Shown here piece after piece: positions 18,001-21,000 of a stretch of DNA of 64,000 nt. The position numbers are program-made. The stretch's first letter is position 1; each line of letters opens with the position of its first letter. The DNA lies in NCBI RefSeq assembly GCF_056712565.1, contig NZ_CM160072.1. One strand, 5' to 3'.

Positions 18001-21000
18001 TTACAACCGACCCAGAACCAATAATACTCTTTGAGCCTAGCTTCAACTGGCCATTTACAACAGTACAGCTACCAACAAAAGTTTCTTCTCCAACAGAAAC
18101 ATCACCATTAAGTACAACATTAGTAGAGATATTGCTACAGCAGCCTATTTCATTACCATGTTCAATTAAACTCCTAGTATTTATTACAACGGCATCATGT
18201 ATTCTAGTATCACGGTTAAGTATACACATTTTACCAATAAAAATTCCATCACCCAGTATAATATTTGGTGATAGAATAGCAGTTTTATCTATAATGTTAA
18301 TTAAGCGTAGATTATGTTTTCTTATGATGTTTAAATAGTGCTTCCTAGTTGATGGTTTGCCTATCCCAATAAAATAATAATAATTATCCTTATTCTCGAT
18401 GTCTGCAATATCATTACCTAATATTGGATATGATTGATGATAACCACTTTTATATTTATCGATAAATCCTATTAACTCGTAATGTTTATGATTTAAGCTG
18501 TCAATTATAGATTTTGAAAAACCACCCGCACCAAATATTATTAACTTTTTACTCATGATATGTCTCAGTTAAATATTTCCAAGGCATAATATTGGAATGT
18601 AACCACTATAGGTCTTTTTTGTAATCAGCAATGGCTTCCGTAACATTTTTATAAAATTTACCTTGCCCCTCTTTGTTAAGATAAATAGCAACATCACAAT
18701 ACTCCTTTAAAGCTCGTTCACTATGTGACACCATTATTAAATGAGATTTTTCTCTTATTTTATCGAATATATCTGAACATTTCTTTTTAAACTTTGCGTC
18801 TCCAACAGCAGTGATTTCATCAATAAGATAATAGTCGAATTTAAAAGCCATACTTAATCCAAAAGCTAACCTTGACCTCATGCCAGAAGAATAAGTTTTA
18901 ATGGGCATATCGAAATATTTTCCGAGTTCGGAAAACTCTTCAACAAAATCAACCCTCTCATTTAACTCATCGCGTTTTGCATATAGTCGGGCAACAAATT
19001 TAACATTTTCACGACCGGTTAAACTTCCTTGAAATCCACCAGCCAATCCAACGGGCCATGAAATTTTATGTTCTGTAATAATGTTCCCACTATCAGGACG
19101 ATCTATACCACCAATTATCCGAAGTAAAGTTGATTTACCGGCTCCATTTTGACCAATCAGGGCAATGTTATAGCCTTTAGGAAAAATAATATTCAAATTT
19201 TTAAAAACATAATGCCGCCCAGTGGGCGTGCGATAAGACTTCGTCAAATTCTCAATCTTAATCATGATGTCAGCATTGCCTCTTCACGCGTTCGGTATAA
19301 TGCCAGGCCGATGAACAGGGTGACCAGAGTAAACATTGCAAGGTAGTTCAGACTCACGCCTTCACTGATATAGCCAGGCATAACTGCCTCGCGGCTTAAC
19401 TCCACAACATGCACTAATGGGTTCCAGAGTAGATATGACCAGTATTGTTTTGGAATCGAGTGTAGAGGGAACATGATGCAGGAGATGAAATACAGCGGCT
19501 TAAGCAGTATCGGCAGGACCTTTTGCATTTCAGGAAAGGTTTTACCAACGACCATAAATATTAAGCCGACGCCACATGAAAGAATGATTAACAAACTCCA
19601 GGTGAGCACAAGTTGTAAAAAGTTTGTAATTTCGAAATATTCGCCTGTCATCCAGACGATAAGCATGAGCAAAATATAAACAGCAACGTAAATCAGTGTC
19701 TCAAGCAGTGCACGTGCAATGATCGTATCGATGGGTTTTACTGGTCGATAATTAAACAGTCCCTGGTTCGCTTCAATAGCACCAATAGAACGTTTGCTAA
19801 TACTACTAAAGATAAAAAAGGGAATCAGGCCATTAAGTAAAAACACCGGGAACGAGATGTCTGGCATAGTGCGGTGCATAACGTAACCCAAAATTCCCAA
19901 CAGTATCAGCAAATGCGCGGAGGGTTCAAGAATCGCCCACAAATACCCCAGACGAAACTTACCAAAGCGTGTTCGTATTTCTCGTAGAAATAATGCCTCT
20001 ACGGTGACTTTCTGAACTTCAAATCCACTTCTTGCCATTTGATGATGTGATCCTAATCTCTTCAGGTACGCTACCGCCCTTGGCTTAACAGCTACCAATA
20101 CACTGGAGGTAATACTTGTTTGTAACTGGATAAAATTTACTCAGACGGTTTGACCTTTTTAATAGCCGCAAAAAAATTTCAGCAGAAATTATTTCCGCAG
20201 GGATAAATAGATCTATTTCCGTCTCGTTTCTTCTAATCCATTCTTCAGGCATGAATGTATTCGGTCTTCTGGTAATTTCAGAAAACTGGCCGTTTTAGAA
20301 TGCAGAGTTAATTTCTCAGGAAATTATTTTTTGTTATTACTGTTAACTACTTGATTATAATATCCCCTATGGATTTTATGCGTAACAACACTTGCAATCT
20401 GTTTCAAACCAGAACGCACGCGATTGATTACCAATAAATTATTCACCGAGAAACTATTTCCCTATTTAAAATTCACTCGTGTACTTCTTATTTATATCTA
20501 CAGCCCCCTCTTTACAGCCATATTTGTGATTTATATCACATTTAAATGGTGTTATTTAAGTTGCATCAATAATCCCGAAGGTAATTATTTTCGTCGATTA
20601 AAATATACATCTTGATTATTTTGTGTATTTATTTTAACCAGTGTTACAACCAACACCATCCCTCAGTAGATATACCTGAGCAGACATTTCTTAAAATCGA
20701 CGAATAGTTTCCCTGGAAATTATTATGCTTATTTGAAATTCCCTTTCTGATTATCTCCTGTAATTTTACTAATTTCCAGGCTACACAAAATACAGATCAC
20801 ATAAGAATTATCCTATATGTTTTGACCTATCAATTGTTACTCAATGATTTATTACAACTATTAATAATCATAATGTATCAAAACACTTAAGCATCTTTAC
20901 AGTCTTAGAAAGATGTCGATTAACGAAGGCTACATGGTGAAAAACAGGTTCCTTCAGTGTTACCGAATATTCCGTGGTGGTCTGGAGGGAGATAATTCTT

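Follow-up and report, generated by a model that had tools for sequence, protein, structure and literature searches.

An ops site within a JUMPstart element in the region 3 leader of an Escherichia coli K1 capsule cluster

Introduction

The closest described counterparts of the locus analysed here are the region 3 leaders of the group 2 capsule (kps) clusters of Escherichia coli, namely, those of the K5 cluster (Stevens et al. 1997) and of the K2 strain CFT073 (c3698; Hustmyer et al. 2022). The group 2 kps leaders share an architecture in which the promoter PR3 is followed by a long leader, an ops site, the kpsMT genes and the region 2 genes. According to the review by Aldawood and Roberts, which cites Stevens et al. 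1997, PR3 precedes the start codon of kpsM by 741 bp, and an ops site 28 bp upstream of kpsM mediates RfaH-dependent read-through from PR3 that region 2 requires for its expression (PMC8960920).

Recruitment of RfaH has been ascribed to the 12-nt non-template DNA of ops alone. In the analysis of Zuber et al., recruitment requires G4, G5, A7 and G8 and is affected about three-fold by C3 and T6; the G12C substitution removes the pause at U11, and recruitment is not abolished. The experimentally validated RfaH targets listed in that work carry the pause-inducing TG dinucleotide (PMC5995543). More distant relatives of the kps element are the ops/JUMPstart sites of waaQ (rfaQ), of the rfb/O-antigen cluster and of wza (colanic acid), with a near-identical JUMPstart, the same mechanism and the same position in the leader; for example, the leader of the O-antigen cluster downstream of galF in strain 2017.13.01CC reads GTTGGTAGCTGTTAAGCCAAGGGCGGTAGCGTG. 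These sites end in G12, which completes the consensus TG pause dinucleotide, whereas the kps site ends in A12, and their leaders are short (88-138 nt in CFT073) compared with roughly 740-850 nt for kps (PMC9765446).

We analysed a window of 64,000 nucleotides from contig NZ_CM160072.1 (assembly GCF_056712565.1), in which an earlier note had pointed to an ops/JUMPstart-like element upstream of kpsM and had suggested comparing it with published kps region 3 leaders. In that comparison, the 28-nt distance, the JUMPstart sequence and A12 are all shared with the K5 and CFT073 leaders, and the locus is the same. It differs from the K5 cluster in region 2, which consists of neu genes (K1) here and of kfi genes in K5, and from CFT073 at ops position 10, a degenerate position of the consensus that is G here and A in CFT073.

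Results

The capsule locus

The window aligns collinearly, at 99.98% identity, with the genome of E. coli ATCC 11775, the type strain of the species. Its capsule cluster belongs to group 2 and to the K1 (polysialic acid) type, with the composition kpsFEDUCS / neuDBACES / kpsMT (Table 1). Region 1 (kpsFEDUCS) is convergent with region 3 (kpsMT) and region 2 (neuDBACES), and the cluster lies beside gsp/yghD, with the gsp type II secretion genes upstream of the minus-strand capsule operon. NeuD, NeuB and NeuC score above their NCBIfam cut-offs; for the kpsM product, the best NCBIfam match is KpsM (NF050053), at 190 bits, under the curated cut-off of 300. Region 2 is AT-rich, as had been said of it, with a GC content of 26-33% against 44-56% in region 1; in the gsp genes, the GC content is 53-56%.

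Table 1 Features of the capsule locus, in coordinates of the window
Feature	Position	Strand	Basis
Long AT-rich 5' leader, PR3 start to ops	20079..20779	-	published distance mapped onto the window
JUMPstart, 39 nt, CAGTGTATTGGTAGCTGTTAAGCCAAGGGCGGTAGCGTA	20067..20105	-	Rfam RF01707; the last 12 nt are ops
JUMPstart stem-loop: 5' arm UUGGU (20098..20094), 9-nt loop, 3' arm GCCAA (20084..20080)	20080..20098	-	Rfam
ops, GGCGGTAGCGTA	20067..20078	-	direct reading; 3' end of JUMPstart
28-nt spacer, ops to kpsM start codon	20039..20066	-	sequence
kpsM, capsule ABC-transporter permease, first gene of region 3	19262..20038	-	WP_000124301.1 annotation in ATCC 11775
kpsT, capsule ABC-transporter ATPase	18606..19265	-	ATCC 11775 annotation and NCBIfam
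Region 2, neuD-neuB-neuA-neuC-neuE-neuS, polysialic acid synthesis	12108..18556	-	RefSeq annotation of near-identical record
Region 1, kpsFEDUCS	4005..11958	+	ATCC 11775 annotation; convergent with the minus-strand genes

The 1.2-kb stretch between the end of yghD and the start of kpsM shows 99.9% identity to ATCC 11775, and at least 80% of this stretch is carried by 1456 of the 5426 complete E. coli genomes. In E. coli genomes that lack kps, the match is confined to the final 54-60 nt of yghD (window ~21091..21150), beyond which they diverge, so that the junction of the capsule island lies directly after the yghD stop codon, near 21096. At the other end of the minus-strand operon, neuS and kpsS converge with 149 nt between them (11959..12107), and a simple scan shows no terminator-like site in this gap on either strand. 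This agrees with the published observation that RfaH-modified polymerase reads on, in antisense, into the end of region 1 (PMC9765446).

Farther away, between yghS and yghO (~49060..58075), the annotation of the collinear ATCC 11775 genome includes an unusual lipid-related cluster. It encodes a serine palmitoyltransferase (spt), an acyl carrier protein, an NAD-dependent epimerase, a second lptF/lptG pair and a 'lipopolysaccharide biosynthesis protein', along with a fatty acyl-AMP ligase pseudogene that is interrupted by an internal stop.

The ops site and the JUMPstart element

On the minus strand, positions 20078..20067 read GGCGGTAGCGTA, which matches the ops consensus GGCGGTAGnnTG at 11 of the 12 positions, with A in place of G at position 12 as the sole mismatch. 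Positions 1-11 are those of the consensus, and the core bases G4, G5, T6, A7 and G8 as well as T11 are all intact. The next ATG of a long ORF is that of kpsM (20038..20036, opening MARSGFEVQKVTVEALFLREIRTRFGKFRL), after a gap of exactly 28 nt. Because ops and kpsM are on one strand, ops is in the non-template strand, as required of any ops, and it is located in the untranslated leader of the operon, upstream of the first gene; transcription of the site from PR3 is taken from the literature (PMC8960920). The strand, position, 11/12 match and distance from kpsM given in the earlier note are borne out by the sequence in every respect.

Taken alone, a 12-mer of this kind is not above chance. With one mismatch or fewer, the window contains 4 sites where 3.18 +/- 1.75 are expected, and at least this many occurred in 41 of the 100 shuffles; the three further ops-like 12-mers are evidently fortuitous. 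These counts are what favours regarding the site upstream of kpsM, too, as a functionless chance match. From the same shuffle counts, by our own arithmetic, the chance of such a 12-mer occurring on the correct strand at most 100 nt upstream of a given gene is ~0.0025. What places the element far beyond chance is that the 12-mer forms the 3' end of a complete 39-nt JUMPstart. When the whole window was scanned against Rfam at gathering thresholds, two hits were returned, one of which is JUMPstart (RF01707) at 20105..20067 on the minus strand, at 58.5 bits, where the gathering score is 35, with E = 7.2e-11 and 38 of 38 model positions matched. The match is full-length, includes the 5-bp stem and shows no sequence difference from the family; the placement is that of a JUMPstart as well, just upstream of a polysaccharide gene cluster (kpsMT and neuDBACES). 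The wording 'ops/JUMPstart-like' can accordingly be sharpened to an ops inside a full JUMPstart: beyond mere likeness, this is the actual JUMPstart/ops of kps region 3.

The other Rfam hit is a full-length C0719 sRNA (RF00117, 291 bits) at 39830..40051 on the plus strand. A second ops-like 12-mer, GGCGGTAGCGAG, in which T11 is replaced by A, is found at 11294..11305 on the minus strand, that is, in the direction of region 3 and region 2 transcription, past the end of neuS and antisense inside kpsS. The site is catalogued in CFT073 (c3691), where it has no recorded RfaH signal (PMC9765446), and is probably fortuitous, maintained by the coding constraints of kpsS.

The region 3 leader

Given the published distance, the PR3 start would map near window position 20779. 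A TATTTT hexamer is present close by, at 20792..20787, with no recognisable -35 element, and a simple sigma-70 promoter scan does not single out the published PR3 position. The only ORF of the leader in the vicinity of ops has 55 aa, starts with ATG (20252..20085, minus strand) and ends at a TAA stop inside the JUMPstart loop, 6 nt before the start of ops; in three other kps leaders, indels leave just 14 or 30 aa of it, so that it is not a conserved gene.

About 105 nt 5' of ops, there is a weak terminator-like hairpin (20198..20182, minus strand) that consists of GCGGAAATAATTTCTGC followed by TGAAATTTTT. Its sequence is kept in 6 of the 6 aligned kps leaders; the number of terminator-like sites is at the chance level, with 2 found and 2.1 expected. 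This hairpin could be linked to the published attenuating effect of the long untranslated region.

Between ops and kpsM, the only AGGA in the spacer sits 12 nt before the ATG, so that any Shine-Dalgarno sequence of kpsM would be poorly spaced. The spacer is kept within Escherichia and is unalignable between genera.

Conservation within E. coli and between genera

An alignment of 230 nt at the start of kpsM covered six genomes: two are K1 (the window and ATCC 11775), one is that of a kfiA-bearing ST131 strain (K5), one has CDP-glycerol glycerophosphotransferase genes in region 2 and is presumably K2-like, and there are two others. Across these six leaders, which represent five K types, JUMPstart is invariant save for ops position 10 (G or A, the degenerate position) and one base 5' of ops. 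A12 is unchanged in all six, in an alignment that says little alone given that the whole leader is 97% identical there.

For a comparison between genera, one genome per species (GTDB) was scanned with the pattern AAGCCANGGGCGGTAGCNTA, that is, the 3' half of JUMPstart ending in A, which yielded 47 loci. The columns under this pattern are conserved by construction, whereas the 5' half of JUMPstart and the adjacency to kpsM were unselected. In 8 of the 47 loci, the element is followed, at a distance of 28-33 nt, by the start of a KpsM homologue: three in Escherichia, where KpsM amino-acid identity is 96-98%, and others in Enterobacter ludwigii, three Pantoea species and an Enterobacteriaceae MAG, where it is 74-83%. 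In the alignment of these loci, the block from CAGYG to the end of ops is conserved and both flanks are unalignable. Together with the Rfam score, this cross-genus conservation already refutes the notion of a chance match, which we consider vanishingly improbable: a fortuitous 12-mer would hardly sit inside a 39-nt JUMPstart (E 7e-11), on the correct strand of an operon leader, and stay beside kpsM across genera while the flanks diverge, nor would its ortholog load RfaH in vivo (PMC9765446).

Most of the remaining loci precede ORFs that resemble wza, wzi or manC, judged from the first 30 residues only. These A-ending JUMPstart elements come from Citrobacter, Klebsiella, Raoultella, Lonsdalea, Pantoea, Atlantibacter and others. 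The few matches in non-enterobacterial MAGs come without the JUMPstart 5' half and look fortuitous. Going by these sequences, an ops with a final A is apparently a natural variant that is common among polysaccharide operons; the scan covered the A12 variants only.

The stem of JUMPstart

Rfam models JUMPstart as RNA, in contrast to the established recognition of non-template DNA, and this raises the alternative that JUMPstart acts wholly or partly as RNA, with a hairpin 5' of ops that affects pausing, processing or ribosome access, the contact between RfaH and the ops DNA being only part of the function. Besides the filing of JUMPstart in Rfam as a cis-regulatory RNA with a 5-bp stem, two observations point in this direction: the 5' half, CAGYGYAYTGGTWGCTGT, is kept between genera though it is outside the search pattern, and in the alignment of 7 kpsM leaders the stem pairs in 97% of the cells, with one compensatory change. 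However, the covariation is within the range of shuffled controls (238/500), in a sample of 7 kpsM leaders only; the predicted RNA fold of the 96-nt context is no better than those of shuffled sequences (z +0.66); and the minimum-free-energy fold lacks the Rfam stem. As recruitment is published as a property of the 12-nt DNA alone (PMC5995543), we regard a role at the RNA level as unlikely, and prefer the explanation in which ops acts as DNA, via RfaH.

A DNA hairpin of the 12-mer was considered as well; at -0.9 kcal/mol, it is marginal and was dropped as evidence. The pairing in this DNA fold differs, presumably, from that in the published crystal structure.

RfaH at orthologous kps loci

The earlier note had proposed that the element recruits RfaH, and for the orthologous site this is documented. 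In the RfaH ChIP-seq analysis of CFT073 by Hustmyer et al., the kps ops, GGCGGTAGCATA, also ends in A and loads RfaH, with a 70.9-fold enrichment that is the strongest among the peaks in part 1 of Data set S2C. The RfaH peak reaches from kpsM across the whole of region 2 and continues, in antisense, into the convergent gene. The 12-mer of the window, GGCGGTAGCGTA, itself occurs in CFT073 as an RfaH-bound ops, at c1882 (PMC9765446).

The proposed read-through from the region 3 promoter via kpsMT into region 2 agrees with the published account (PMC8960920) and with the collapse of RNA polymerase progression through the kps operon in the rfaH deletion mutant of CFT073; for wzx, kps and rfa, the RfaH-dependent travelling ratios amount to <=0.1-0.34, compared with about 1 for control operons (PMC9765446). 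The consequence of an rfaH deletion for the capsule, which had been named as a test, is on record for a K1 strain: Goh et al. recovered rfaH by TraDIS in strain PA45B, and the defined rfaH deletion resulted in the loss of the K1 capsule (PMC5654933), an outcome that favours the RfaH interpretation.

These results bear also on the possibility that ops is merely a pause site, or irrelevant, and that region 2 is driven by internal promoters independent of RfaH. Promoter-like hexamers are indeed present in the AT-rich kpsT-neuD region, but they are not enriched there, with 13 sites found against 14.7 expected. Internal promoters of this kind are difficult to reconcile with the abolition of the K1 capsule by the rfaH deletion (PMC5654933) or with the decay of polymerase occupancy along the kps operon in the rfaH deletion of CFT073 (PMC9765446), and we judge this scenario to be very improbable. 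RfaH-dependent read-through from PR3 is the reading that we retain.

Discussion

The element upstream of kpsM is almost certainly an ops site that works via RfaH and lies within a 39-nt JUMPstart, in the leader of region 3 of a K1 group 2 capsule cluster from E. coli. Transcription would start at PR3, ~740 nt upstream, and cross the AT-rich leader. When RNA polymerase reaches GGCGGTAGCGTA, the non-template strand would be exposed on the polymerase surface and recognised by RfaH, which would replace NusG and stay bound for the rest of the operon. There, RfaH is expected to suppress pausing, Rho-dependent termination and the arrest imposed by H-NS/StpA, and may also aid ribosome loading on kpsM with its poor Shine-Dalgarno sequence, allowing the polymerase to continue across kpsMT and the AT-rich neuDBACES region of roughly 6.5 kb. 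In the absence of RfaH, transcription would fade within the operon, and no capsule would be made. In this scheme, the sequence, strand, position, JUMPstart membership, gene context and conservation come from the present analysis, and the promoter position, RfaH loading, counter-silencing and dependence of the capsule on rfaH come from published orthologous loci; by analogy, the copy in the window would be expected to behave identically. Nothing in the evidence gathered contradicts the ops/JUMPstart explanation.

The single mismatch to the consensus is no defect: A12 is the normal form of the kps ops. It is apparently tolerated, given that the G12C substitution leaves RfaH recruitment in place; at the same time, A12 departs from the TG pause dinucleotide (PMC5995543), so that the U11 pause may be weaker here. 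One could imagine A12 as a tuned variant, in which a weaker U11 pause would alter the efficiency or conditionality of RfaH loading after an unusually long, H-NS-bound leader, or else a separate role of the JUMPstart 5' half at the RNA level. We hold this to be a doubtful proposition; the evidence that speaks for it is conservation, and the cross-genus sample was selected for A12.

The kps JUMPstart/ops before kpsM is already known, a real but ordinary element. The role of RfaH at the kps ops has been textbook knowledge since 1997, with genome-wide confirmation in 2017 and 2022, so that the value of the finding lies in the correct annotation of the window and in a positive control, not in a discovery. 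RfaH loading at the kps ops is needed for the K1 capsule to be expressed, and this polysialic acid capsule counts among the major virulence factors of the neonatal-meningitis, urosepsis and avian-pathogenic groups of E. coli.
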